From Saprospirales bacterium (GTDB lineage: Bacteria > Bacteroidota > Bacteroidia > Chitinophagales > UBA8649): a stretch of 64,000 bases of DNA. The translations under genes and the position numbers were made by a program. This document shows, one piece after another, positions 2,370 to 55,978 of the stretch. Position 1 is the stretch's first letter. Each line of letters starts with the position of its first letter. The notes under the pieces are model-generated. The model was given only the letters and a program-made list of their open reading frames with translations. It did no database searches and had not been told where the DNA came from. The stretch covers positions 5,803-69,802 of the forward strand of contig PAPS01000033.1 in assembly GCA_002708985.1 (NCBI GenBank), given 5' to 3'.

Positions 2370-2419
2370 ATTTTACTAAACTCAAACAAATAGTCGGTTA
2401 AAACATTAGCTTCATTTAT

Positions 2420-2427
2420 TATTTTTG
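2420..2427 (+). promoter_or_regulatory. Bacteroidota sigma-A -7 element (TATTTTTG)
   Basis: Exact TAnnTTTG 14 nt upstream of ATG 2442. Confidence 0.55.
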
Positions 2428-2441
2428 AGAAAATTTATATA

Positions 2442-2789
2442 ATGAAAAATATTCTTTCCTTGGGATTTACCCTTTTTCTTGCAGTAACAGTTTTTGCTGC
2501 AGGAGGTACCGAAACGCTAACACTAAAGACCTCTGCAGTATGCGGTGGGTGTAAAGTACGTATTGAGTCTGCGGTTAAAGAATTACCAGGTATTAAAACG
2601 GCAACAGTTGACCTTACCAATGGTTCTTTAACAGTGGAATACAGAGAAAGAAAAATCTCTGCTGATGATATAAAGCTTGCTGTTTCTATGGCAGGATATA
2701 GCGCCAATGAAGTAGCTGCTAATCCTGAGAGCTATGAGGCACTACCCGCATGCTGTAAAGGAAGCAAAAAGAGTTGCGGTTCGAAGTAA
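2442..2789 (+). CDS. Exported heavy-metal-associated (HMA) domain protein
   Basis: Signal peptide, SAVCGGCKVRIE metal-binding motif, C-terminal YEALPACC tail. Confidence 0.85.
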   Translation: MKNILSLGFTLFLAVTVFAAGGTETLTLKTSAVCGGCKVRIESAVKELPGIKTATVDLTNGSLTVEYRERKISADDIKLAVSMAGYSANEVAANPESYEALPACCKGSKKSCGSK

Positions 2790-2806
2790 AGAACGTGCTC
2801 ACATAT

Positions 2807-2839
2807 AAAAGCCCATCCAACTGGATGGGCTTTTTTTTT
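2807..2839. terminator. Bidirectional intrinsic terminator
   Basis: AAAAGCCCATCC-AACT-GGATGGGCTTTTTTTTT between the convergent HMA and hsp20 genes. Confidence 0.9.
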
Positions 2840-2868
2840 GAAACAAATAATCTAGAATAAATGCGGTA

Positions 2869-3300
2869 TTAGCTGGCAATTGGGATTTTTTTCCGCTCTA
2901 CTTTTTTCACCTTGACTTTAGGTAAGGTAATAGTGAGAAGGCCATGGTTCATTTGGGCTTTTACCTCGCCAAGATCAATATCTTTATTAAGCTTGAAACG
3001 TTTAGTAAAAGATGTGGCAAATCTGTTTCCCTCCTTCTCCTCTTGGTCATCTTTCTCGTATTGAACAACTAATACGCCTTCCTCTAACGCAAGGGATATT
3101 GATTTGTTATTCAATCCTGGAAGAGCAATTCGAATGTACCATGCATTCTCTTCTTCATCAATTTGGCTATGAATGGAATCTTCTGTGCGAATGCCATTTT
3201 GTAACAGAATGTTGGGTGAAAAGAAATCGTCGAAAAACAACCTCTTAAATTGCCTGAACTCAGCATTTGGTTGATAGGGTTTTGTGTGTGTTAAAAACAT
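2869..3300 (-). CDS. Small heat-shock protein (Hsp20/alpha-crystallin)
   Basis: IALPGL, SFTKRFKL, AQMNHGLLTITLPK and C-terminal IPI motif. Confidence 0.9.
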   Translation of the reverse strand: MFLTHTKPYQPNAEFRQFKRLFFDDFFSPNILLQNGIRTEDSIHSQIDEEENAWYIRIALPGLNNKSISLALEEGVLVVQYEKDDQEEKEGNRFATSFTKRFKLNKDIDLGEVKAQMNHGLLTITLPKVKVKKVERKKIPIAS

Positions 3301-3341
3301 AAATTTTTGATTTAATGATTATGAAATATGCAATGCACAGG

Positions 3342-3357
3342 GCAAAGTATGTTCCAA
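3342..3357 (-). promoter_or_regulatory. Putative sigma54 -24/-12 promoter of hsp20
   Basis: Minus strand TTGGAACATACTTTGC = GG-N10-GC, about 40 nt upstream of the hsp20 start. Confidence 0.6.
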
Positions 3358-3369
3358 TACACTAAGGCG

Positions 3370-3445
3370 CGACAAAATGCTAGGAATCGAATCATATATA
3401 TGACAAAAAGTCAGTTTGTTTAATCAATATATGACAAAAAGACAG
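3370..3445. repeat. Three phased direct repeats (putative activator sites)
   Basis: ATATATGACAAAAAGTCAG (3396-3414) and ATATATGACAAAAAGACAG (3427-3445) are 18/19 identical. The GACAAAA core occurs at 3371, 3402 and 3433, an exact 31-bp period. Confidence 0.8.
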
Positions 3446-3463
3446 CTATTTCTTTAAACTAGA

Positions 3464-5830
3464 TTAAAATGGATAGCCTATTGCGAGGTTAAACACTAGA
3501 TTTTGTTGTCGCCAGGCACGATCGCGCCATTGATAGGTTCCAACACGCCAGCGCTCTCCTTGGTCATATCGCGGGTCATGAACCGGAAGCCCTACATCAA
3601 GACGGATTACAAAATATTCAAAGTCGAGACGAAGACCACCTCCCCATCCCATGGCTATGCCTCGGTAGAAGTCTTTGTTAAATTGGCCCCCTGGACGAGC
3701 CTCATCTCTATTATATAACCACACATTACCTAAATCATAAAAAAGAGCCCATTTGATCCATGAATTCATTGACCAACGTAATTCGATGTTGGCTTCTAGT
3801 TTTACATCTCCCGATTGATCAAAGAAGTAGGTTGGATCTGTCAGTGTAAGTGAGTCACTGTAAGTTCCTGGCCCAATAGATCGCAGCTTAAAGGCACGAA
3901 TACTATTCGCTCCACCAACATAAAATTGACTGATAAATGGGATAATGGAGCTGTTTCCAAAAGGTATACCAACACCAATCATGGCTCTTGAGGCTAGTTG
4001 TGCTTTGGTTCTGCCAATCCCTCTAGCATATTTTCCTTCGACTTCAAAACGCAAGTATTGTGCATAGGGACGGCCAAAAATGGTATAATCTCCACGCTCT
4101 CTTTTTCCTTGAAGGATTTTTGTGAAGCCGCTTACAAGATTCCCTGCCATCTGCGCGTCAAATCGAAAACTTTCTATGTTGAGCTTGTTGTTTCGGGGTA
4201 TGCCTGTCCAAAGGAAAGTGTAGTTCGACCCTGCGATAAGAGATTCCTGGAAACTTCTAGCTAACGAAGGAAATTGAAGGAGTTTGTCTTCAAATTCTCT
4301 AGTTCTAAATGCATCAGGCAGATAAAACACATTCAATTGAATAGGTCTTAGAGTATGTAGTATTTTCTTATTCTTATTCCATTCATAAGCAACAGATGCA
4401 CTGATTGTGTGCAGTCGATAAAATCGGAATCGTTGTTCAAATTTGTAGCGAGTTGAGAAAGTAGTACGTATCCTAGTACTGCGCTTAAGTGGCCTAATAG
4501 CAAAGGGTAAAATAGCTTTAGGAAAGGCTTCGCTTATATCGATGACAAAATCAGCGTTATTCAATGCGCCATCAATTCGGCCAAATTCTGCATCCACACC
4601 CGCTATATTTTTTATTTGAAATATGTCGGCAAGCCTAAAGAGGTTTCGATTGGTATATCCCAAACTTGTGGATACCCCTGATAAGCCGGGCTCTATCCTA
4701 TGATTGATCTCAATATCTAAGTCGAGCGATTGGTGTTTCCCCTCGGTAAGGTACACTCGGCCAATTAGGTTGTGCTTTGCGGTATCAAGTGCATTAAACT
4801 TTAAATCGATAAAGCGAAATGTTCCATAAGATGCAAATCGTTGAACTGTTGGCTCATATAAAGATGCTTTAAACCGATCACCGGCCTCATAAAATACTGC
4901 TTGTCGAAGGAGCACGGGTCGATAACGGAGCTTGCCATTCCAAAAAATGGAAAGTCCTTCGTAGTTTCTCTGGTGGCTTACCGCGGTATCACTATGTTGT
5001 ACTCGATAATCTGGGTAGACCTCTATTGAATCAACCGTCCATATCGCATGTCCTTCACCATTGACCTGGTTGGTAATTTGCAACTCAAGATTGATGGAAG
5101 AAACATCGCTGAAGCTGTCTAGTGAAAAGCGAATGTAATCCGGGCTGAAGGCGTAAAATCCTTCATCGCGAAAAATGCTGGACAATCGCCTTCTTTCTTG
5201 GTCTAATTCATCGATACTGAACCTTGCTCCGGGTAAAACTTTAGAGTCTTTCTGATGTCTTCGAATAATAGAGTCTAGTATGGGATTATTTGCAATGATT
5301 GATACATTGCCAATGTAGTAGGGGTCATTAGGCTCAAGGATATAGGTCACTTTTGCGCGTTTGCCCATGGTGTCTGTCTCAACCTTAATGGAGTTGTCCA
5401 AAAATCCTGCATTATACATATACTGCCGAAAAGCCAATGACGTCCTTTCAGTGAGCGTTGGGTCAAGAATGACCGGCGCTTCTCCAATAGACCGCTTTAT
5501 CCAAGAACGTAAGCTTTTGCCTTGAATTTCTGTGCCATCTCCTCGTACTTCTCGTTGAAACCAAGCGCGTAGGGCCCATATACCAAGCAGGCGTCGGTTG
5601 GGTTGCTGAAAGGGAATATCGCTTAACAACTCTTGTTGGGGTATGCCTTCGTTAAGACCTTTATTTTCTTCTACGACGATCTTGTTTTTCCAAACTAGAT
5701 ACTCTCCTTGGTCGAGACTTCTTCTCACAGAACAGGACGAAAATGCTGCGGCTATTGCAATAGCCAAGGGTAAAATATGCAACACCCTCCATGTAAACTT
5801 TTTATTTCGTCTTACTTTAGAACTTGTCAT
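3464..5830 (-). CDS. tamL: Omp85-family TamL/TamA lipoprotein (POTRA + beta-barrel)
   Basis: Lipobox AFSSC, YVGGANSIRAF loop-6 motif, C-terminal NLAIGYPF. Start uncertain (5836, 5830 or an internal GTG/TTG). Confidence 0.8.
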   Translation of the reverse strand: MTSSKVRRNKKFTWRVLHILPLAIAIAAAFSSCSVRRSLDQGEYLVWKNKIVVEENKGLNEGIPQQELLSDIPFQQPNRRLLGIWALRAWFQREVRGDGTEIQGKSLRSWIKRSIGEAPVILDPTLTERTSLAFRQYMYNAGFLDNSIKVETDTMGKRAKVTYILEPNDPYYIGNVSIIANNPILDSIIRRHQKDSKVLPGARFSIDELDQERRRLSSIFRDEGFYAFSPDYIRFSLDSFSDVSSINLELQITNQVNGEGHAIWTVDSIEVYPDYRVQHSDTAVSHQRNYEGLSIFWNGKLRYRPVLLRQAVFYEAGDRFKASLYEPTVQRFASYGTFRFIDLKFNALDTAKHNLIGRVYLTEGKHQSLDLDIEINHRIEPGLSGVSTSLGYTNRNLFRLADIFQIKNIAGVDAEFGRIDGALNNADFVIDISEAFPKAILPFAIRPLKRSTRIRTTFSTRYKFEQRFRFYRLHTISASVAYEWNKNKKILHTLRPIQLNVFYLPDAFRTREFEDKLLQFPSLARSFQESLIAGSNYTFLWTGIPRNNKLNIESFRFDAQMAGNLVSGFTKILQGKRERGDYTIFGRPYAQYLRFEVEGKYARGIGRTKAQLASRAMIGVGIPFGNSSIIPFISQFYVGGANSIRAFKLRSIGPGTYSDSLTLTDPTYFFDQSGDVKLEANIELRWSMNSWIKWALFYDLGNVWLYNRDEARPGGQFNKDFYRGIAMGWGGGLRLDFEYFVIRLDVGLPVHDPRYDQGERWRVGTYQWRDRAWRQQNLVFNLAIGYPF

Positions 5831-6626
5831 GTCCACTTTAAGCCTTTCTCAAGTCAAACAAATTCGTGCGCTTCACTCAAAGAAGTACCGGGATAAACAT
5901 AACGCTTTCCTTGTTGAAGGGCGTAAGTCTATAGAAGAATTTGTTAAGGAAGGTTGGTGCTGTTTGCAATATGTTGTACAAGATTCTACTCAACCTATTG
6001 ATGGTCTCGATCAAGAAATATACATCACCGACTGTAAAACGATGAAGTCCATTTCTGTATTATCGTCCGCTTCCAATCATCTCGCAGTTTTTCAGCGTAA
6101 ATACAGTGAAATGAATACCGCTCTAAGGATATGGGTAGCACTTGATCAATTGCAAGATCCAGGAAATCTAGGAACGATTATTCGAACGATGGATTGGTTT
6201 GGGTGTCATCATCTAGTACTTAGTGAAGGATGTGTGGATGTGTTTAATCCTAAGGTAGTTCAAGCGAGTATGGGTTCCCTTAGTCGTGTTTCGGTTCATC
6301 AAATAGCCCGCGAAGAATGGAAGGATTTGTTTGATAATCGCCATATTTTATTTGCTGACCTTGAGGGACTTTCATTTACCAGTCCTGAGCTCACTAATCA
6401 TCTCATTACTCCAATGGGCTTGCATCCGCTGGTTCTTGTAATGGGTAATGAGGGTAATGGGATTCATCCTTCTACTCGTGCATTGGTTGATTATACCTCG
6501 ATTACTATTCCTCGTGGTGTATCCGTCAAGTCAAATGTGGAATCACTGAATGCCGCTATGGCGACGGGAATAATGCTCGCTCATTTTAGTTCGATGCGAG
6601 ATTCAGGAAAGGCCAATAGCCACTGA
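5829..6626 (+). CDS. TrmH/SpoU-family RNA methyltransferase
   Basis: DPGNLGTIIRT, NPKVVQASMG, MGNEGNG, VESLNAAMA. Start refined to ATG 5829 (MSTLSLSQVKQI). Confidence 0.9.
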   Translation: MSTLSLSQVKQIRALHSKKYRDKHNAFLVEGRKSIEEFVKEGWCCLQYVVQDSTQPIDGLDQEIYITDCKTMKSISVLSSASNHLAVFQRKYSEMNTALRIWVALDQLQDPGNLGTIIRTMDWFGCHHLVLSEGCVDVFNPKVVQASMGSLSRVSVHQIAREEWKDLFDNRHILFADLEGLSFTSPELTNHLITPMGLHPLVLVMGNEGNGIHPSTRALVDYTSITIPRGVSVKSNVESLNAAMATGIMLAHFSSMRDSGKANSH

Positions 6627-14975: not shown

Positions 14976-16043
14976 ATGCAACGACTATCGATTTTTATGA
15001 TATTCATGGCGTGCTATTTGCTCAGCAGTGCACAAGTGGATGAACGCCTTACCGATTTATCGAGGTATATAGCAGGAATGCCTGCGCCAATGTATACTTC
15101 AGATGATAAGTTAAATGATGCGATACCAAGTGATTACTCCGAAGACTGTACATCTGCCTTTGATCGTCTTAGTGAAAAGCACCTAGAGCCGATTAGTGAA
15201 TGGGCGAGTTCATCATCAATTATAAGTAACAGCGATCATCAAAAAACATTGTTTTATCCATTTGCTGGTGCAGATTTTATCTATGCTGATGCTTTTTTTG
15301 GCGAGGTTGACAATATGATCCTAATCGGTCAGCAAGATGCAGGTACATTACCCGACTTTGATGCGATGTCTCAATATGAAATCAAAGAGTATCTAAATGC
15401 AATCTATAACAGCTTATCCATTTCCAATCGACTAGGCTTCTTCAGAACAAAGGACATGAATCGTCAGTTTCGAGACACTTATGTGAATGGCACAATTCAT
15501 TCAATTCTTTGGTATATGGCAAGAGCTGAAATGAAGATTATTTCGATTCGTAATGTTCGTTTGACGTCTAGCGGGCGGTTGGAGACATCTACAGGTAAAG
15601 ACGGTATAGAAGTGATATACAGTGACAAGGGTAAGGAGAAAAAGCTCTATTACTTTGCTTACGATTTGTCCAACTCTAATCTTTCAAGCAATTCTCGTCT
15701 ATTTGACTTTCTTAAATCCTTTGGAAAGCATAATGTCCTTGTCAAAAGTGCGTCGTATTTAATGCACAATAGTAGCTTCTCTATTATACGGGACTATCTT
15801 ATGAATACTTCACATCTAGTGATTCAAGACCCTTCTGGAATACCCTACAGAAAACTTGTTTCAGCAGGATGTAGCGTTGATTTACATGGAACGTATACAA
15901 GACCGATTTCCTTGTTCTCAGGATATAGTCAATCCAGTTTGAAAGAAGCTGCAAAAAGTGCACCCGATTTACCCTTTATGATTGGTTACATGGCTCCTTA
16001 TGGTGAGTGCAGTTTGGCTGTTTTTAAGAGTTGTGATAATTGA
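14976..16043 (+). CDS. Exported conserved hypothetical protein (YPFxGxD motif)
   Basis: Signal peptide, LFYPFAGADF, KSASYLMH, QDPSGIPY, LPFMIGY. Confidence 0.7.
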   Translation: MQRLSIFMIFMACYLLSSAQVDERLTDLSRYIAGMPAPMYTSDDKLNDAIPSDYSEDCTSAFDRLSEKHLEPISEWASSSSIISNSDHQKTLFYPFAGADFIYADAFFGEVDNMILIGQQDAGTLPDFDAMSQYEIKEYLNAIYNSLSISNRLGFFRTKDMNRQFRDTYVNGTIHSILWYMARAEMKIISIRNVRLTSSGRLETSTGKDGIEVIYSDKGKEKKLYYFAYDLSNSNLSSNSRLFDFLKSFGKHNVLVKSASYLMHNSSFSIIRDYLMNTSHLVIQDPSGIPYRKLVSAGCSVDLHGTYTRPISLFSGYSQSSLKEAAKSAPDLPFMIGYMAPYGECSLAVFKSCDN

Positions 16044-32980: not shown

Positions 32981-34996
32981 CTATTTTATGCGGGACTGTG
33001 TCTTTATTTCCTCAATTAAAATCTCTTTGCTGTGCTCCGCGTCATGGTCTAGAGAGATTTCTAAATAGTTGCCGTCCCCAGCAACAGTCAAACTTTCCAT
33101 TCGTTCAAGTCCATTTGAATCGTTACCAAATCCCAATACTGATAATTTTATACCGTAGTCCTTATTATTTCGACGAACTACACGGAGCAGCTCTTGTTCG
33201 TTAAGAGTTAAGTGGTCATCGGTAAAAAGTCCGTCCGTGGCGAGTATGATTTGATTATTTCCTTCGGAAAGGAAGCTCCCTTGAATCAGTGCATACGCCG
33301 CTTCAATTCCTTTTACTCCGTATGTAAGTCCGGATGGCGTTAAACGGTTTACTTCATACTTTACCGCTTCCTTGTCAGATAGTGCAATCGATGAGAAGAT
33401 GGTGTCAGCCTTTGAGTTGTAGGTAATTAATCCAATTTGATCAAAATCTCTAAGGACGTCAATTAAGGTGGTTATAGATTTTTTAAGCTTAGCTATTTTC
33501 CCATGTTTTCGCATCGAAAAAGAAATGTCAATAAGAAAAATGAGATTGTTCTGTTTGTATAGCGCCTCATTGAGTTCTCCCCATTGATTGTAATCCGAAA
33601 GATCTTCATCAACTACAGTTTCTTCCTCGTAACCATTATCTTCTGAATTATTGGAGGTGTTCATAAAGCTTTCCATCCGTTCTTCTGGGGACATTTCACT
33701 TAATTGGATTTCTTCACTCGTTGCCTGTGTGGTGGTTAAAACATCCTCTTCAGAGCCTTCAGTATTTTCTTCACTGATTAAGGTTGTATCTTCCGACTCG
33801 GTGATGTCGATGTGGTTTTCCAATGATGTGTTTTCGTGGCTTGAATTCGTTTCAGATGCTACATCTGTCGAGGTAGGAGATAAATCGGCTTGCACATTTT
33901 CTTGAATAGCTATTGTTTCAAGCGAACTGCTCTCTTGAGAGCTAGGTGTATCTAGGGTAACTCCAACGTAAATAGGAGTCAGGTAAACCTCTTGAATTTC
34001 CGTAATCTTAGTGTCTATGGTCACTACCTTTTTTTCATAACCGCTGGCTTTAATTTCGGCCTCTGTGTTTTCTTTGGGCTGTCCAGTTCTCCAAATCCCC
34101 TCCTCGTCACTCTTACCCGACTCCAGAAGGTAGCCATCTACATTACGAACAAAAACATCTGCACGATAAATAGGCTGTTCGGTTACGATGTTTAAAATTT
34201 GGAATCCATAATCCACAAAACTTGGGTCATCTAAGTTGATTGGGTTCATGTCATAAGCTGCCAGAAGTGAATCATAGTTGATATCGTTCTCGTCGAAGGT
34301 CCGATCCATGCTAATTTGAATAACATCTGACCGATAAGTGTGGTCAAAATACATGGTTTGTGAAGCGTAGCCGTCACGCTCGAGGGTCATGTCAAAGCTT
34401 CCTTGTGGAAAGTTTTCGTTGAGTTGCCCTTCTTCATTGGTAGTCATGATAATTTCATCGGGATAATATTGAGACTTTAGTCGCACGCGCACGTTTTCTA
34501 AAGGACGATCAGTACGTTTGTCACGAACAAACAATGAAAGGTTGCTTATCGAGGTGGACTTGCCCTTTCTGTAGGCAGGACAAACACTGACGACATTTGG
34601 GGAAAAAGATAAAATGTTTCCCTTGATAATAACAGGAAATGGAGAGGATGATTCTTCGAAGTAAAGCGTTACAACTTCGTCAAACTTACCTTTTTGACCC
34701 GTATAAAACTCGATATAAAATGAGGCCGAATCTCCCGGTTGGATTCCGTAAGTTGGATAAAGAATATTTACGGAGGGTGTACTAGGCGTTCTTAAGAAGT
34801 GAAGCGTTTTGTCGCTTCCGTTGTATACGGTAAAGGTTGCTTTTGGATTGGACCAATTGGTTAGCCTTCCATAATCAAAAACTTCGGGGTGTATGGTAAC
34901 GACATCCGTAATGCTTTGGCTAATCGCACGTATTTGTATACCCAAAAGAAATGGAAGTAGTAGGATAAGTAAACACTTCTTTGGTTGCATATTCAT
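32981..34996 (-). CDS. Exported VWA protein with Ig-like/carboxypeptidase-regulatory-like domains and acidic linker
   Basis: Signal peptide, DUF1573-like N-domain, MIDAS DISFS...T...ATDG. Confidence 0.8.
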   Translation of the reverse strand: MNMQPKKCLLILLLPFLLGIQIRAISQSITDVVTIHPEVFDYGRLTNWSNPKATFTVYNGSDKTLHFLRTPSTPSVNILYPTYGIQPGDSASFYIEFYTGQKGKFDEVVTLYFEESSSPFPVIIKGNILSFSPNVVSVCPAYRKGKSTSISNLSLFVRDKRTDRPLENVRVRLKSQYYPDEIIMTTNEEGQLNENFPQGSFDMTLERDGYASQTMYFDHTYRSDVIQISMDRTFDENDINYDSLLAAYDMNPINLDDPSFVDYGFQILNIVTEQPIYRADVFVRNVDGYLLESGKSDEEGIWRTGQPKENTEAEIKASGYEKKVVTIDTKITEIQEVYLTPIYVGVTLDTPSSQESSSLETIAIQENVQADLSPTSTDVASETNSSHENTSLENHIDITESEDTTLISEENTEGSEEDVLTTTQATSEEIQLSEMSPEERMESFMNTSNNSEDNGYEEETVVDEDLSDYNQWGELNEALYKQNNLIFLIDISFSMRKHGKIAKLKKSITTLIDVLRDFDQIGLITYNSKADTIFSSIALSDKEAVKYEVNRLTPSGLTYGVKGIEAAYALIQGSFLSEGNNQIILATDGLFTDDHLTLNEQELLRVVRRNNKDYGIKLSVLGFGNDSNGLERMESLTVAGDGNYLEISLDHDAEHSKEILIEEIKTQSRIK

Positions 34997-35032
34997 AGTT
35001 TTACATTATCAGTGAAGTTACTTTCAAAATAC

Positions 35033-35761
35033 ATGCTTCAGATTAGTGGGTTTTTAGCATCAAGGCGTGGATGGGCTATTATAGTAGTCATTGTTTTACA
35101 CACAGTGGGTGGAATATGTATGGCTCTAGGCGATCCGATAGGTTTAGTTTTACTCACACCTGCGCACTTATGTATAACTACATTTATATTGTTTTCTATT
35201 CATCCTCCGCTCAATAGGGAATTCTACAAGGCAGCCTTTTTGACCTTCATGTTCGGTATGTTTATTGAGATTGTTGGAGTACGAACAGGTAATATATTTG
35301 GCGAGTATCATTATACACCTTTGCTCGGTCCTAGAGTTTTAGGAGTTCCTATTGTAATTGGTACAAATTGGTTGCTATTGTCTTATTGTTTTTCTGCGCT
35401 TGTTCTATGGTGGCGACCGTCTTCACGATGGTTGTATAAGGTGATTTTAGGCGGTGTGGGAATGGTGCTCCTAGACGTAATCATTGAACCTTTTGCTGTG
35501 CATTATGGTTTATGGATTTGGAAAGGCCGAGTTCTTCCTTCAATGGCTAATTACCTAGCATGGTTTTTGGGAGGATGCATTGTTACATCAATATGGTTGC
35601 GCTTCTGGCAAAAGCCTGCTAATCATCAAGTTAGGTTCTCAAAATCGACAGAGGTCGACAGAAATATTGATTTGATTGGCAATAATGACATTCTTCTCGT
35701 AACTATTTTGTCTTTAGTAGTGTTCTTAGTACTGAGTTCAGCAGGGATTATGCTGAATTAG
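35033..35761 (+). CDS. cruF: CruF-like (DUF422) carotenoid biosynthesis membrane protein
   Basis: EIVGVRTGNIFGEYHY, LGVPIVIGTNW, DVIIEPFA, NYLAW. Start refined to ATG 35033. Confidence 0.75.
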   Translation: MLQISGFLASRRGWAIIVVIVLHTVGGICMALGDPIGLVLLTPAHLCITTFILFSIHPPLNREFYKAAFLTFMFGMFIEIVGVRTGNIFGEYHYTPLLGPRVLGVPIVIGTNWLLLSYCFSALVLWWRPSSRWLYKVILGGVGMVLLDVIIEPFAVHYGLWIWKGRVLPSMANYLAWFLGGCIVTSIWLRFWQKPANHQVRFSKSTEVDRNIDLIGNNDILLVTILSLVVFLVLSSAGIMLN

Positions 35762-35768
35762 AGCTACA

Positions 35769-36641
35769 ATGGGAAAATATTCGATTAAAGATATTGAGAT
35801 GCTAACGGGCATCAAGGCGCATACCTTAAGGATATGGGAAAAGCGCTATGATATCGTCTCGGCAGAGAGAACGGATACGAATATCAGGTTTTACAGTGAC
35901 GCTCAACTTAAGACGCTTCTTAATATTGCCTTGCTTAATCAAAACGGTATAAAGATTAGCAAGATCGCATCTTTGTCACAGGACGAAATACGTCAGAGGG
36001 CCATGGAAATGGGTCTGATGCAAACAAGCGACAACTATTTTCAAGGTAAACTTATCGAGTTTATGATTGCCATGGATGAGTCTAAGTTCGAAGCAACTTA
36101 CGAATCAAGTATTCGAAAACTTGGATTTGTGCATCAAATTGAGTCTGTTTTGTATCCTTTCATGCGAAAGGTGGGAATGTTGTGGTCGACCGGATCGATA
36201 AATCCAGCACAAGAACATTTCGCCACAAACATCATTAAGCGGCGCATAATGCGTGAAATTGAGAAAACTAAGCGTTTAAACGAAAATCCTAAACGTTTCA
36301 TTCTTTTCTTACCTGAAGGAGAGCTTCATGAAATAGGGCTGTTGATCGCTGAATACATGCTCCGTATACATGGTGCAAGGACGCTTTACCTTGGTGCTTC
36401 TGTTCCCATAGAGGATTTGGATAAAGTTCATCAATCCTTTGTTCCGGAATATTATGTTACCTGTTTTATTGTAGAAGGTGTGGGCCGGTCAGTGCGTGAA
36501 GAGCTCAACTATATAAGTGGTAAATTTCCCAAGTCTGAGATATTGTATTTTGGTTCTTCGTTTTTATTATCTGACATTGATCCTCCAGCGAACTGTAACT
36601 ATCTTTCTTCTCTTCATCAACTTGATCAGTACGCCATCTAG
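35769..36641 (+). CDS. carH: MerR-family B12-binding photoreceptor/repressor (CarH/LitR)
   Basis: MerR HTH (HTLRIWEKRY), W-x9-EH (WSTGSINPAQEH), ExHxxG (ELHEIG). Confidence 0.88.
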   Translation: MGKYSIKDIEMLTGIKAHTLRIWEKRYDIVSAERTDTNIRFYSDAQLKTLLNIALLNQNGIKISKIASLSQDEIRQRAMEMGLMQTSDNYFQGKLIEFMIAMDESKFEATYESSIRKLGFVHQIESVLYPFMRKVGMLWSTGSINPAQEHFATNIIKRRIMREIEKTKRLNENPKRFILFLPEGELHEIGLLIAEYMLRIHGARTLYLGASVPIEDLDKVHQSFVPEYYVTCFIVEGVGRSVREELNYISGKFPKSEILYFGSSFLLSDIDPPANCNYLSSLHQLDQYAI

Positions 36642-36795
36642 CGTTTGATATTTTTTAAAGTTATACACATTCTCTAGGTGTTGCTAGAAGACAATTATAC
36701 CTCCCAATTGTTTGTTTAATGTCTACTGTAAACCATTCATTTTGTTTAATTTATTACCAATTTGAGTCATATTAAGTTGAACGAAACAACCATTA

Positions 36796-36825
36796 TGTTT
36801 AACTAAATGTGGAAATAATTAAACA
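36796..36825. promoter_or_regulatory. Putative CarH operator 1
   Basis: TGTTTAA-N16-TTAAACA. Confidence 0.7.
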
Positions 36826-36861
36826 AAAAGTTGGGAAAATTGTCGCTTTTATGAAATATTC

Positions 36862-36891
36862 TGTTTAAGTTTAAGTCTGAAAAGTTAAACA
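36862..36891. promoter_or_regulatory. Putative CarH operator 2
   Basis: TGTTTAA-N16-TTAAACA, 66 bp after operator 1 and ending on the A of the sigma ATG. Confidence 0.7.
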
Positions 36892-37400
36892 TGTCTACAC
36901 GAGTATTTATAACACAAGTTGGGGAAATCGAAAGTTTTCTGCGTTCATTTGCACTTAGCCTAACTCAAAATCAAAGTGATTCTGACGATCTTGTTCAGGA
37001 CACTCTTCATCGAGCCATGAGAAATCTAGATAAGTACAAGGACGGTACAAATTTCCGTGCCTGGATGGCTACAATTATGAAGAATATCTTCATTAATAAC
37101 TACCGTCGCAAGTCTCGTCAAAACACTATGCTTGATGGATTAGATGAGCGCACAAGTACTGTCATTGATCGCAATCATTTCGAGATTAATACGGCATCAA
37201 GTAACTTGAGTGAAGAACTGATTGTTAATGAAATTGACGCGCTGAAGGATGATTTACGCCTTCCATTCCTTATGCATGTTGATGGTTTTAAATATGAAGA
37301 AATTGCCTTGCAACTTGACGTTCCTTTAGGAACAATCAAAAGTAGGATTTTTCATGCGCGACGTATACTTCGATTGCGTTTAACCAAACTAGGATATTAA
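36891..37400 (+). CDS. ECF sigma factor heading the crt operon
   Basis: DDLVQDT, NFRAWMATIMKNIFIN, YEEIA...PLGTIKSRIFHAR. Confidence 0.92.
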   Translation: MSTRVFITQVGEIESFLRSFALSLTQNQSDSDDLVQDTLHRAMRNLDKYKDGTNFRAWMATIMKNIFINNYRRKSRQNTMLDGLDERTSTVIDRNHFEINTASSNLSEELIVNEIDALKDDLRLPFLMHVDGFKYEEIALQLDVPLGTIKSRIFHARRILRLRLTKLGY

Positions 37401-38905
37401 TGTCGAAAGCCCTTGTCATAGGATCTGGATTCGCCGGCATCAGTGCCGCATCGCATCTCGCTCAAAAGGGATATGAGGTCAAGGTTCTAGAAAAAAATGA
37501 GGGCGCTGGTGGACGTTGTTCGGTATGGCACAAGGATGGTTTTACTTTTGATATGGGGCCATCTTGGTATTGGATGCCTGATGTATTTGATCGATATTTT
37601 AATCAATTTGGTAAACAAGTTCAAGATTATTACCACTTAGATCGTTTAGATCCAGGCTATAGAGTTTTTTTTCCGGAAGATCTTCGCGTTGACATTCCCG
37701 GTAACGAAATGGAGCTCTTCCAACTTTTTGACAGATTAGAGGAGAATGGTGGCAACAAGCTAAAGATCTTTCTTAATAACGCGAAGGCAAAATATGAGGC
37801 TGGTATGAATGACCTAGTTCATAGACCTTCTATTTCATTCACAGAGTTTATTGACTTTTCAATTGTAAAGCAGGTTCCGAAGCTTAAGTTGTTTACTTCC
37901 CTCACGGCAGAGATAAGTAGCCTCTTCACAAGTGAGGCAGCGCGCAAGCTATTGGAGTTTCCTGCTTATTTTCTTGGGGCTTTACCAAAAGATACACCTG
38001 CGCTATATAGCTTGATGAATTATGCTGACTTATCGCTCGGCACGTGGTATCCTCAAGGGGGAATGCATCAAATTATCAAAGGCATGGTTTCTTTGGCTGA
38101 AGAGTTAGGTGTTCATTTTGAATATAATGCGGAGGTTGAAAAAATATTAGTTGATGAGAACGGTCGTGCTCGTGGTGTGTCAGTGAATGAAATAACCTAT
38201 GAAGCTGACCTTATTGTTGCAGGTGCCGATTATCATCATGTTGAGTCAAAGCTTTTAGAACCTAAGTGGAGAAATTACCGGGAGGGTTTTTGGGATAAGC
38301 AGGTTATGGCACCTTCTTCTTTAATCTACTACTTAGGTATAGATAAGCGATTGGATAATCTATTACATCATAACCTTTTCTTTGACGAGGACATTGAGCA
38401 GTTTGGCTCAGATATATACAGTAAGCCTCAATGGCCTGAAAAACCACTATTTTATGTTTGTTGTCCATCAAAGACGGACACTTCGGTTGCTCCAAAAGGT
38501 AAAGAAAACGTGTTTTTGCTAATGCCTCTTGCTCCAGATCTTGAAGACACCGAATCTTTGAGAGAAAAGCGTTTCAAATTCATGGTTGATAAGTTAGAGA
38601 CCATTACGGGGACAAGTGTACACGATGCTATTTCCGTTAAACGAGGTTTTTGCATAAATGACTTTAAGTCGCGATATCATGCCTATCGTGGGAATGCCTA
38701 TGGACTAGCTAATACTTTACGGCAAACTGCTATATTCAAGCCTAAGATGATTAATAAGAAGGTGAATAATCTATTTTACACTGGGCAACTTACGGTACCC
38801 GGCCCAGGTGTTCCCCCTAGTCTTATTTCAGGCGAGGTTGTGGCAAATTATATCAGTAATAAGATTCCTTTAACGCAAAAAGAAACCTATGATGCACTTG
38901 CATGA
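37400..38905 (+). CDS. crtI: Phytoene desaturase
   Basis: IGSGFAG, FDMGPSWYWMPD, TGQLTVPGPGVPPSLISG. Confidence 0.93.
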   Translation: MSKALVIGSGFAGISAASHLAQKGYEVKVLEKNEGAGGRCSVWHKDGFTFDMGPSWYWMPDVFDRYFNQFGKQVQDYYHLDRLDPGYRVFFPEDLRVDIPGNEMELFQLFDRLEENGGNKLKIFLNNAKAKYEAGMNDLVHRPSISFTEFIDFSIVKQVPKLKLFTSLTAEISSLFTSEAARKLLEFPAYFLGALPKDTPALYSLMNYADLSLGTWYPQGGMHQIIKGMVSLAEELGVHFEYNAEVEKILVDENGRARGVSVNEITYEADLIVAGADYHHVESKLLEPKWRNYREGFWDKQVMAPSSLIYYLGIDKRLDNLLHHNLFFDEDIEQFGSDIYSKPQWPEKPLFYVCCPSKTDTSVAPKGKENVFLLMPLAPDLEDTESLREKRFKFMVDKLETITGTSVHDAISVKRGFCINDFKSRYHAYRGNAYGLANTLRQTAIFKPKMINKKVNNLFYTGQLTVPGPGVPPSLISGEVVANYISNKIPLTQKETYDALA

Positions 38906-39725
38906 TCGCTGTGGTGAGCTAACTAGTATTATGATGGCAAAGCAATACAGCACGTCATTTAGTTTAGGTATCCGTATGTTAGATAAGCCCTTGCGCTTTC
39001 CAATCTCTGCGATTTATGGATTTACGCGTGCAGCAGATGAAATCGTTGACACCTTTCATGATTACGATAAGCAGGCTTTGCTCGGGCGTTTTAAAAAGGA
39101 AACTTACCTCGCGATTGATGAGGGCATAAGCACTAATCCAATATTACACAGTTTCCAACGAATTGTTACTAGATACAATATTGAACGAGAGGTTATTGAG
39201 GCGTTTTTCACTTCTATGGAGATGGATTTACATAAATCCACATATACATCAGAAGACTACAATATCTATATCTATGGAAGTGCAGAAGTTGTAGGTTTAA
39301 TGTGTTTGAGTGTTTTTGTTAACGGTAATAAAGAAATGTACAATGATTTGCTTTACGGGGCAAAGATGCTCGGCAGTGCTTTTCAAAAAGTCAACTTTCT
39401 GAGAGATATTCAGGATGATGCGGAGGACAAAGGCAGGGTTTACTTTCCTGGAGTGAGCTTTGATAATTTTACAGAGCAGGATAAAGAAATCATTGAACAA
39501 GATATCCAACGTGAGTTCGATGAGTCGTTGGAGTATATCAAAAGACTTCCAACCTCTGCTCGCTTTGGTGTCTTTGTTGCTTACAACTACTACCAAAGGT
39601 TATTCAACAAAATAAAGCGAACCCCTGCAAGTCAGATTGCTATTCAGCGCATAAGAATTCCAAATACAAGGAAGTTTACTATGCTTGGACGATTATGGTT
39701 ATTTAATCAGTTAGGCGCAGTTTAG
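38889..39725 (+). CDS. crtB: Phytoene synthase
   Basis: YSTSFSLG, ADEIVD, YIYGSAEVVGLMC, VNFLRDI. Confidence 0.94.
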   Translation: MMHLHDRCGELTSIMMAKQYSTSFSLGIRMLDKPLRFPISAIYGFTRAADEIVDTFHDYDKQALLGRFKKETYLAIDEGISTNPILHSFQRIVTRYNIEREVIEAFFTSMEMDLHKSTYTSEDYNIYIYGSAEVVGLMCLSVFVNGNKEMYNDLLYGAKMLGSAFQKVNFLRDIQDDAEDKGRVYFPGVSFDNFTEQDKEIIEQDIQREFDESLEYIKRLPTSARFGVFVAYNYYQRLFNKIKRTPASQIAIQRIRIPNTRKFTMLGRLWLFNQLGAV

Positions 39726-55612: not shown

Positions 55613-55978
55613 ATGAGAAAAATTACTAAATATCTTTGCTCCGTCTTTATTGCAGGATCAGTTTTTCTTTTAAGTTGCGCCAATGAGTCAGGTAATATGT
55701 CAAATTTTGATGAATCAGAAAAACCTCATCTAGAAGTCGTCGCAAACGATTCTTTACTTCTCTCCATTGAGGGTATGATGTGTCCTTCAGGATGCGCTAA
55801 GCCTATTGAAGAAAAACTTGCGTCATGCGTTGGGATAAGTAATTGCACTGTGGATTTTGAAAATCAAACGGCCTTTGTAAGCTTTGATAATTCTTCTATA
55901 ACTCCAGAATTAATGATTCAAGTTGTCGGTGCTGTAAACGATGGTGCTTATACGGCATCTGTAAAAGAAGCGCTATAG
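55613..55978 (+). CDS. HMA-domain lipoprotein (CxxxC variant)
   Basis: Lipobox LLSC, IEGMMCPSGCAKPIE. Confidence 0.8.
   Translation: MRKITKYLCSVFIAGSVFLLSCANESGNMSNFDESEKPHLEVVANDSLLLSIEGMMCPSGCAKPIEEKLASCVGISNCTVDFENQTAFVSFDNSSITPELMIQVVGAVNDGAYTASVKEAL

Follow-up and report, generated by a model that had tools for sequence, protein, structure and literature searches.

Known sigma-54 promoters of heat-shock genes

The closest described counterparts of the promoter analysed here are the sigma-54-type promoters of Flavobacterium psychrophilum. Transcription starts have been mapped for such promoters at groES-groEL, dnaK, grpE-dnaJ, htpG, lon, clpB and skp, and the bacterium possesses rpoN (PMC9723704). 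Basal expression of the chaperone cluster driven by these promoters is high, and the cluster is responsive to growth conditions. Three candidate activators are mentioned, of which none is assigned, and no enhancer motif is assigned either (PMC9723704). In a PSSM survey of 2025, sigma-54 promoters were predicted before the genes for GroEL, GroES, GrpE, DnaJ, DnaK and the sHSP family COG0071 in Bacteroidota and Planctomycetota; in Bacteroidota, such predictions are over-represented before COG0071 genes (PMC12316311). The survey is a computation at the COG level and is concerned with neither enhancer sites, spacing, RNA evidence nor Chitinophagales (PMC12316311). The sequence-only reading of the hsp20 locus had implied an arrangement out of the ordinary. 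It is less so, since such promoters are already known from Bacteroidota chaperone genes (PMC9723704, PMC12316311). Outside this phylum, NorR binds three tandem dyad sites at norVW of E. coli, and all three are required for ATPase activity and for the open complex (PMC2831303).

A literature search of incomplete coverage returned no paper describing the enhancer motif or naming the activator of the chaperone promoters, which is absence of evidence only. Bacterial enhancer-binding proteins (bEBPs) act, as a rule, from dyad-symmetric enhancer sites roughly 70–150 bp ahead of the promoter. E. coli also has a sigma-54-dependent promoter at a small heat-shock gene, ibpB, where it is secondary to sigma-32 control. 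To our knowledge, the RpoH scheme is not used by Bacteroidota.

The hsp20 gene studied here shares with the sigma-54 (motif SM4) promoters of the F. psychrophilum proteostasis cluster the phylum and the type of gene downstream, a chaperone or protease gene (PMC9723704). The geometry of the -24/-12 region is also the same: counted from the mapped start, the GG occupies -26/-25 and the -12 dinucleotide -14/-13 (PMC9723704). The -12 element differs, being mostly TTGA or TTGT in SM4 and TTGC here, and hsp20 was not found by text search in the gene lists of the F. psychrophilum paper (PMC9723704). As chaperone sigma-54 promoters have already been mapped by their transcription starts in F. psychrophilum, the hsp20 promoter is of a known type. 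What is added here is a conserved enhancer motif that extends across orders, together with its geometry, for a putative regulator.

Organization of the hsp20 locus

The positions of the features discussed below are collected in Table 1. They refer to the window, which is the whole 64-kb stretch of DNA that was analysed and comes from an uncultured marine member of the Bacteroidota.

Table 1. Features of the hsp20 locus and their positions in the window
Feature	Position	Strand	Basis or remark
HMA gene, convergent with hsp20	2442-2789	+	
GC-rich hairpin between HMA gene and hsp20, flanked by A and T runs	2807-2834		terminator scan
hsp20, small heat-shock protein of 143 aa	2869-3300	-	ORF; Pfam HSP20, E 3.9e-17
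Intergenic region, 163 bp, from Omp85/TamA-like gene to hsp20	3301-3463		holds promoter and repeats
5′ UTR, ~29 nt	3301-3331	-	start inferred from L001; almost invariant among 5 lineages
Sigma-54-type promoter TTGGAACATACTTTGC	3357-3342	-	GG 3355/3354, GC 3343/3342, 10 nt between
Proximal element CTAGCATTTTGTCGC	3369-3383	-	centre about -47
Middle dyad CTGAC-TTTTT-GTCAT (perfect TGAC-N5-GTCA)	3400-3414	-	centre 3407, about -78
Distal dyad CTGTC-TTTTT-GTCAT (TGTC-N5-GTCA)	3431-3445	-	centre 3438, about -109
Omp85/TamA-like gene, upstream of hsp20	3464-5836	-	Pfam Omp85 and POTRA

The hairpin between the two convergent genes is likely to be a bidirectional intrinsic terminator serving both the HMA gene and hsp20. 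The transcription of hsp20 could be followed in metatranscriptome contigs from four runs. These contigs cover positions 2823-3294 of the window and nothing else in 2400-3900. The word depth is ~4-60 on hsp20, whereas the intergenic region and both neighbouring genes, Omp85 and the convergent HMA gene, have a depth of zero. This indicates that hsp20 was expressed alone, and strongly, in the samples concerned. Its RNA contigs have their 3′ ends at 2823-2832, within the hairpin. Transcription of hsp20 is monocistronic, and the unit ends at the hairpin.

The HMA gene, which is syntenic with hsp20 in all orthologous loci, encodes a small protein with a heavy-metal-associated (HMA) domain, a signal-peptide-like N terminus and a Cys-rich tail. 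A second small HMA-domain protein is encoded in the window at 55613-55978. On the other side of hsp20, the ORF of a SpoU-type methylase (5643-6626, plus strand, 327 aa) overlaps the Omp85 ORF head-to-head by ~190 nt (5643-5836). The Omp85 ORF begins with GTG and encodes 790 aa, whereas its orthologs are called at 755 aa and those of the SpoU-type methylase comprise 290 aa. Because the orthologs are shorter, the true starts of both genes are probably located further in, which would make the genes divergent neighbours. Among the 50 window ORFs scanned, neither rpoN nor a gene with PF00158, the AAA+ domain of bEBPs that interacts with sigma-54, was found, which counts against the sigma-54 reading; the orthologous and outgroup loci collected did not contain a PF00158 candidate either. 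The genes dnaK, groES, clpB and lon have no representative in the 64-kb window.

Close relatives of the Hsp20 protein, with 70-79% identity, occur only in an uncultured marine clade labelled Chitinophagales. Scans of genomes and metagenomes with the protein yielded a single useful locus. From public assemblies, 19 syntenic loci were collected which represent five lineages: the window, L004, L005, L016 and the L001 group. The gene order is SpoU methylase, Omp85, hsp20, HMA protein and FG-GAP/T9SS protein, and the intergenic regions of the five lineages are 71-79% identical. Three assemblies of the same clade (L020-L022), obtained by nanopore sequencing and polished with pilon, show the same architecture. 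They were excluded from the spacing measurements. Many genes around hsp20 are split in these assemblies, consistent with homopolymer indel errors, which make spacings there unreliable (29 bp between sites in L020).

The -24/-12 element and the probable transcription start

The GG-N10-GC element described in the sequence-only reading is present ahead of hsp20 and on the same strand. The element TGGAACATACTTTGC (3356-3342, minus strand) is located ~41-42 nt before the hsp20 ATG at 3300. Compared with TGGCAC-N5-TTGC, it reads TGGAAC-ATACT-TTGC, with the correct GG-N10-GC geometry and 9 of 12 consensus positions. The quality of this match is not distinctive. The pattern TGG-N8-TTGC is observed 8 times in the 64-kb window against 8.6 expected, and ten window sites that have both GG and GC are no worse matches to TGGCACG-N4-TTGCW; the best other match, at 15007, is inside a signal-peptide coding sequence. 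By itself, the consensus match is at chance level, and this counts against the sigma-54 reading. What lends weight to this match, which is not significant alone, is its position, its conservation and the RNA 5′ ends. In all orthologous lineages the element is TGGAAyATnCTTTGC. GG and GC are unchanged throughout, and the spacer position n is occupied by A, T, G and C across the lineages.

The contigs of the window's own lineage have their 5′ limit at 3290-3294, just inside the coding sequence and short of the UTR, and words from the window UTR or promoter were found in none of the RNA runs. A likely start was located with the help of L001, whose Hsp20 is 76% identical to that of the window. The landmarks in L001 are the ATG at 4001, the GG at 3948/3949 and the GC at 3960/3961. 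Contigs from four samples of one study have their 5′ ends at 3974, 3974, 3973 and 3972, the last two including one and two unaligned leading bases, respectively. These ends are 11-13 nt past the C of the -12 GC, and no contig extends upstream of them, while the 3′ ends vary from 4432 to 4471. The RNA 5′ end is sharp, and its distance from the -12 element is the expected one. By homology with these ends of assembled contigs, transcription of the window's hsp20 would start at 3329-3331, where the invariant block ATATTTCATAATC begins. This agrees well with the start near 3330, about 12 nt from the GC, that had been predicted from the sequence. The 5′ ends, which come from assembled contigs of a relative, may mark a processing site instead of a start. 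In the runs X28-X31 of a second study, coverage is even and low over everything, the ortholog intergenic region included, which is due to either read-through or DNA carry-over; these runs give no indication of the start.

The 5′ UTR and the first ~25 nt of the hsp20 coding sequence (3275-3331, minus strand) are almost invariant across the lineages. Within this block, the window alone contains a 2-nt insertion (AAATCAAAAATTT versus AAATCATATTT). The 5′ UTR has a minimum free energy of -0.6 kcal/mol (z +1.0), and of 200 shuffled sequences 171 are equally or more stable; no Rfam family came close to the threshold for it. An RNA thermometer of the ROSE, fourU or similar type was rejected, because the 5′ UTR is unstructured and without an Rfam match. 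Given the lack of structure, the invariant block may rather be a translation-initiation signal without a Shine-Dalgarno sequence.

Other types of heat-shock control share chaperone targets with the promoter described here. The CIRCE element (TTAGCACTC-N9-GAGTGCTAA) has no match in the 64 kb with up to 3 mismatches allowed, and TAnnTTTG, the -7 box of Bacteroidota sigma-A promoters, is missing from the gene strand in 3301-3463. The absence of both from the hsp20 upstream region is in line with the sequence-only reading, in which RpoH and HrcA/CIRCE had been set aside for this gene. In contrast to HrcA/CIRCE and RpoH systems, hsp20 has neither CIRCE nor a promoter of the sigma-70 family type, and it differs from ibpB in that no second promoter type is apparent beside the sigma-54-type element.

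The chance-level consensus match leaves room for the view that a sigma-70-family factor (sigma-A or ECF) transcribes hsp20, that the GG and GC are fortuitous and that the repeats bind a class-I activator. The TTTG in the -12 region is similar to the last bases of the Bacteroidota -7 box, and a weak TTGCCC-16-CATAAT pair is found at 3345-3318. We regard this as very unlikely. The orthologs read ATnCTTTG, without the TA, and the Bacteroidota -33/-7 promoter was rejected for want of TAnnTTTG. From the end of the nearest TTTG to the RNA 5′ end the distance is 13 nt, too much for a -7 box. The sigma-70-like pair was rejected as well, as the RNA 5′ end is upstream of its -10 hexamer. Moreover, the GG and GC never vary across the lineages, whereas all four bases occur at the variable position of the spacer. 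The hsp20 genes of outgroups, described below, have TGG-N8-TTGA, which is the TSS-mapped sigma-54 form of F. psychrophilum.

Upstream dyads

Three GACAAAA cores had been reported upstream of the promoter, and they are located exactly as claimed, at 3371-3377, 3402-3408 and 3433-3439 on the plus strand with a spacing of exactly 31 bp. The identity of two of the sites in 18 of 19 nt was also verified, for the 19-mers 3396-3414 and 3427-3445. A repeat search of the region yielded a single direct-repeat family of 19 nt, 95% identical, with a start-to-start distance of 31. The repeat pair is the sole exact 15-mer recurring within 60 nt in the whole 64 kb.

The symmetry of the sites required some revision. 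The proposed palindrome TGACA-N3-TGTCA is indeed a dyad, but TGAC-N5-GTCA is its better form, and the consensus of the dyads is TGnC-W5-GnCA. Likewise, of the three enhancer sites that had been proposed, the middle and the distal ones are dyads, whereas the third is a conserved half-site and not a full site: the proximal element holds the right half CATTTTGTC only (3379-3371, minus strand). On the gene strand, the spacer between the distal and the middle site is 16 nt, and that from CATTTTGTC to TGGAACATACTTTGC is 14 nt. With 8 matches versus 10.8 expected, the degenerate pattern TGNC-N5-GNCA by itself is no more frequent in the window than by chance.

A weight matrix was built on the marine clade alone, using its ten distal and middle sites. 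With this matrix the proximal element scores 7.9 bits, the 10th best of ~128,000 window positions, and the corresponding element of L005 reaches 14.1 bits. The third-best match in the window, ATGCCATTTTGTAAC (14.1 bits, 3191-3205, plus strand), is located in the hsp20 coding sequence ~130 nt past the start. As it is not kept in the orthologs, it is probably a chance match.

Conservation in orthologous loci

Within the intergenic regions of the five lineages, conservation is confined to blocks: the distal TG.C.TT.TG.C, the middle CTG.C.TTTTG.CA, the proximal CATTTTGTC, TGGAAyATnCTTTGC and the entire 5′ UTR. The spacers among these blocks are scrambled. The 9-mer CATTTTGTC is invariant in all five lineages. 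The middle site has the form CTGnC-(T/G)TTTT-GkCA in all orthologs at an unchanged position, and the distal site the form TGnC-N5-GkC(A/G). The distance between the distal and the middle site is 31 bp in four of the five lineages and 30 bp in L016, and that between the middle and the proximal site is 31 bp in all five. The repeats assigned by the sequence-only reading to the hsp20 promoter are accordingly found in the orthologous promoters too, with the -24/-12 element and the three sites kept in place and the intervening sequence diverged. A helical-phase comparison of four lineages, calculated by hand, is compatible with a single helix face and is not significant.

The inner base of the half-sites varies, being C, A or T on the left and T or G on the right. 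L005 has a perfect TGCC...GGCA and the window a perfect TGAC...GTCA, while TGCC...GTCA is found in others. Strict covariation within the dyad (TGCC/GGCA versus TGAC/GTCA) was ruled out, since hybrids such as TGCC...GTCA are common. As the inner position varies without strict covariation, the dyad symmetry is only partial, and this counts against the proposed reading of the sites.

All close orthologs belong to one syntenic marine Chitinophagales clade, so the conservation could in part reflect shared ancestry, and the repeats might then be a local duplication or a remnant that persists in close relatives without a regulatory role. This appears highly improbable. The sequences between the sites have diverged freely, but the sites have not, and the motif with its spacing recurs before non-orthologous hsp20 genes (~30-44% identity) in other orders.

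The motif in other Bacteroidota

In a profile search, a large gap follows the marine clade, and the next Hsp20 proteins are 27-44% identical. Three outgroup hsp20 loci were examined: L026, from a Bacteroidales MAG; L030, a Bacteroidota-like contig on which a neighbouring gene ends in a T9SS sorting domain; and L023, from Tenacibaculum geojense. Each of them contains a TGG-N8-TTGA element 45-67 nt before the hsp20 ATG, and in each the best matrix match of the entire locus is found a short distance upstream of this element. The matches were compared with 2000 dinucleotide shuffles, which for L026 were made of the 130-nt upstream region.

In L026, the top match of the 6.4-kb locus is CTGCCATTATGTCGT with 17.9 bits (0 of 2000 shuffles), and a second copy of the core GACATAATGGC is exactly 31 bp away, the centres being at about -81 and -112. 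The two best matches of the L030 locus, CTGCCTTTTTGTCTG and TTGTCATATTGTCAT, score 16.1 and 8.8 bits (3 of 2000 shuffles) and are located at about -56 and -89, with a spacing of 33 bp. In L023, the three best matches of the 6.5-kb locus comprise two beside hsp20 and one in the lon leader. Those beside hsp20, at about -89 and -67 (20 of 2000 shuffles), are closer together and overlap. Overall, the outgroup sites are found from -56 to -112. By its matches to the marine-clade matrix, the motif recurs before the hsp20 genes of other Bacteroidota orders.

The promoter strings published for F. psychrophilum begin with ACATTTTGTCC for clpB and AAAAAATGTCAG for groS (PMC9723704). Both have a W5-GTC half-site centred at -46, matching the invariant CATTTTGTC at -47 here. 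As the strings end at -50, enhancer sites are not visible in them.

The match in the L023 lon leader (2001-2013) is a perfect TGTC-ATTCT-GACA 13 nt before the lon ATG. It is located ~97 nt downstream of the sigma-54-like element TGGCATAACTATTGA (2130-2116, minus strand). This dyad could be an enhancer acting from downstream or a repressor operator.

The position of the lon dyad, at about +97 in a transcribed leader, would also suit a repressor and counts against the bEBP reading. The same is true for the proximal element: with its centre at -47 it is unusually near the promoter for an enhancer and abuts the polymerase footprint. Both observations would fit a sigma-54 promoter at which the repeats serve a heat-shock repressor or anti-activator as operators, or an architectural DNA-bending protein as binding sites. 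The latter role would also be compatible with the conserved T5/A5 centres, which are phased at three turns and could act chiefly via intrinsic bending. The true enhancer would in that case be elsewhere, or consist of only part of the TGnC-W5-GnCA sites. We consider such a function of the repeats unlikely. Without an activator, a sigma-54 closed complex stays silent, so that repression is seldom needed. Furthermore, the hsp20 sites of four lineages are at -47 to -112, the usual range of enhancers, and no further conserved block is present upstream that could act as one.

Proposed mechanism

We consider it probable that hsp20 is controlled by a sigma-54 promoter and a bEBP which binds to the dyads and the half-site and assembles into a hexamer on one face of the DNA. 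In this proposal, hsp20 would be a single-gene unit transcribed from a sigma-54 (RpoN) promoter with a start at ~3329. Sigma-54 RNA polymerase would occupy the -24/-12 element as a closed complex, which would open only upon the action of the ATP-hydrolysing bEBP. Dimers of the bEBP would occupy the two TGnC-W5-GnCA dyads, centred at about -78 and -109, and the half-site at -47. A distance of 31 bp corresponds to three helical turns, which would place all three sites on one face of the DNA, and three dimers sharing this face could assemble the active hexamer. The T5 centres, which are conserved and in phase every three turns, may also curve the DNA intrinsically and so stand in for an IHF site.

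The interpretation given in the sequence-only reading, in which RpoN and an activator drive hsp20, is supported by these results. The dependence of hsp20 on sigma-54 is inferred from the invariant -24/-12 element and the RNA 5′ ends, and the conserved dyads suggest that a bEBP binds there. The assembly of a hexamer is proposed by analogy with NorR, for which tandem dyad sites upstream of the sigma-54 promoter norVW are likewise part of a model in which three dimers form one hexamer (PMC2831303). The organism, the signal (NO) and the motif of NorR are unrelated to those of the putative hsp20 activator, for which the third site would be only a half-site. The NorR sites fit within a 66-bp fragment, so their spacing is tighter than 31 bp. 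The inducing signal at hsp20 would presumably be proteotoxic or heat stress, by analogy with the chaperone cluster of F. psychrophilum.

More tentatively, the tandem TGnC-W5-GnCA dyads, set about three helical turns apart, with the half-site at about -47 might be the code of a single heat-shock bEBP common to the whole phylum Bacteroidota, for which we see a little less than an even chance. If this were true, a phylum-wide bEBP would take the role played elsewhere by RpoH or HrcA, and the motif would be a direct handle on the sensing of proteotoxic stress in Bacteroidota through DNA-affinity capture, DAP-seq and regulon prediction. The motif and its geometry could be used to pull out the activator and to predict its regulon in any Bacteroidota genome. 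It could also help to read hsp20 signals in marine metatranscriptomes, as hsp20 is strongly and specifically expressed in some samples.

Other features of the window

A carotenoid cluster is located at 34985-39725 and encodes a carotenoid synthesis protein, a phytoene desaturase-like amine oxidase and a phytoene synthase. It also includes the genes of a MerR-family regulator with a B12-binding domain (35769-36641), which we take to be CarH/LitR-like, and of an ECF sigma factor (36891-37400). The presence of the MerR/B12 regulator and the ECF sigma factor within the cluster suggests that it is under light-dependent control.
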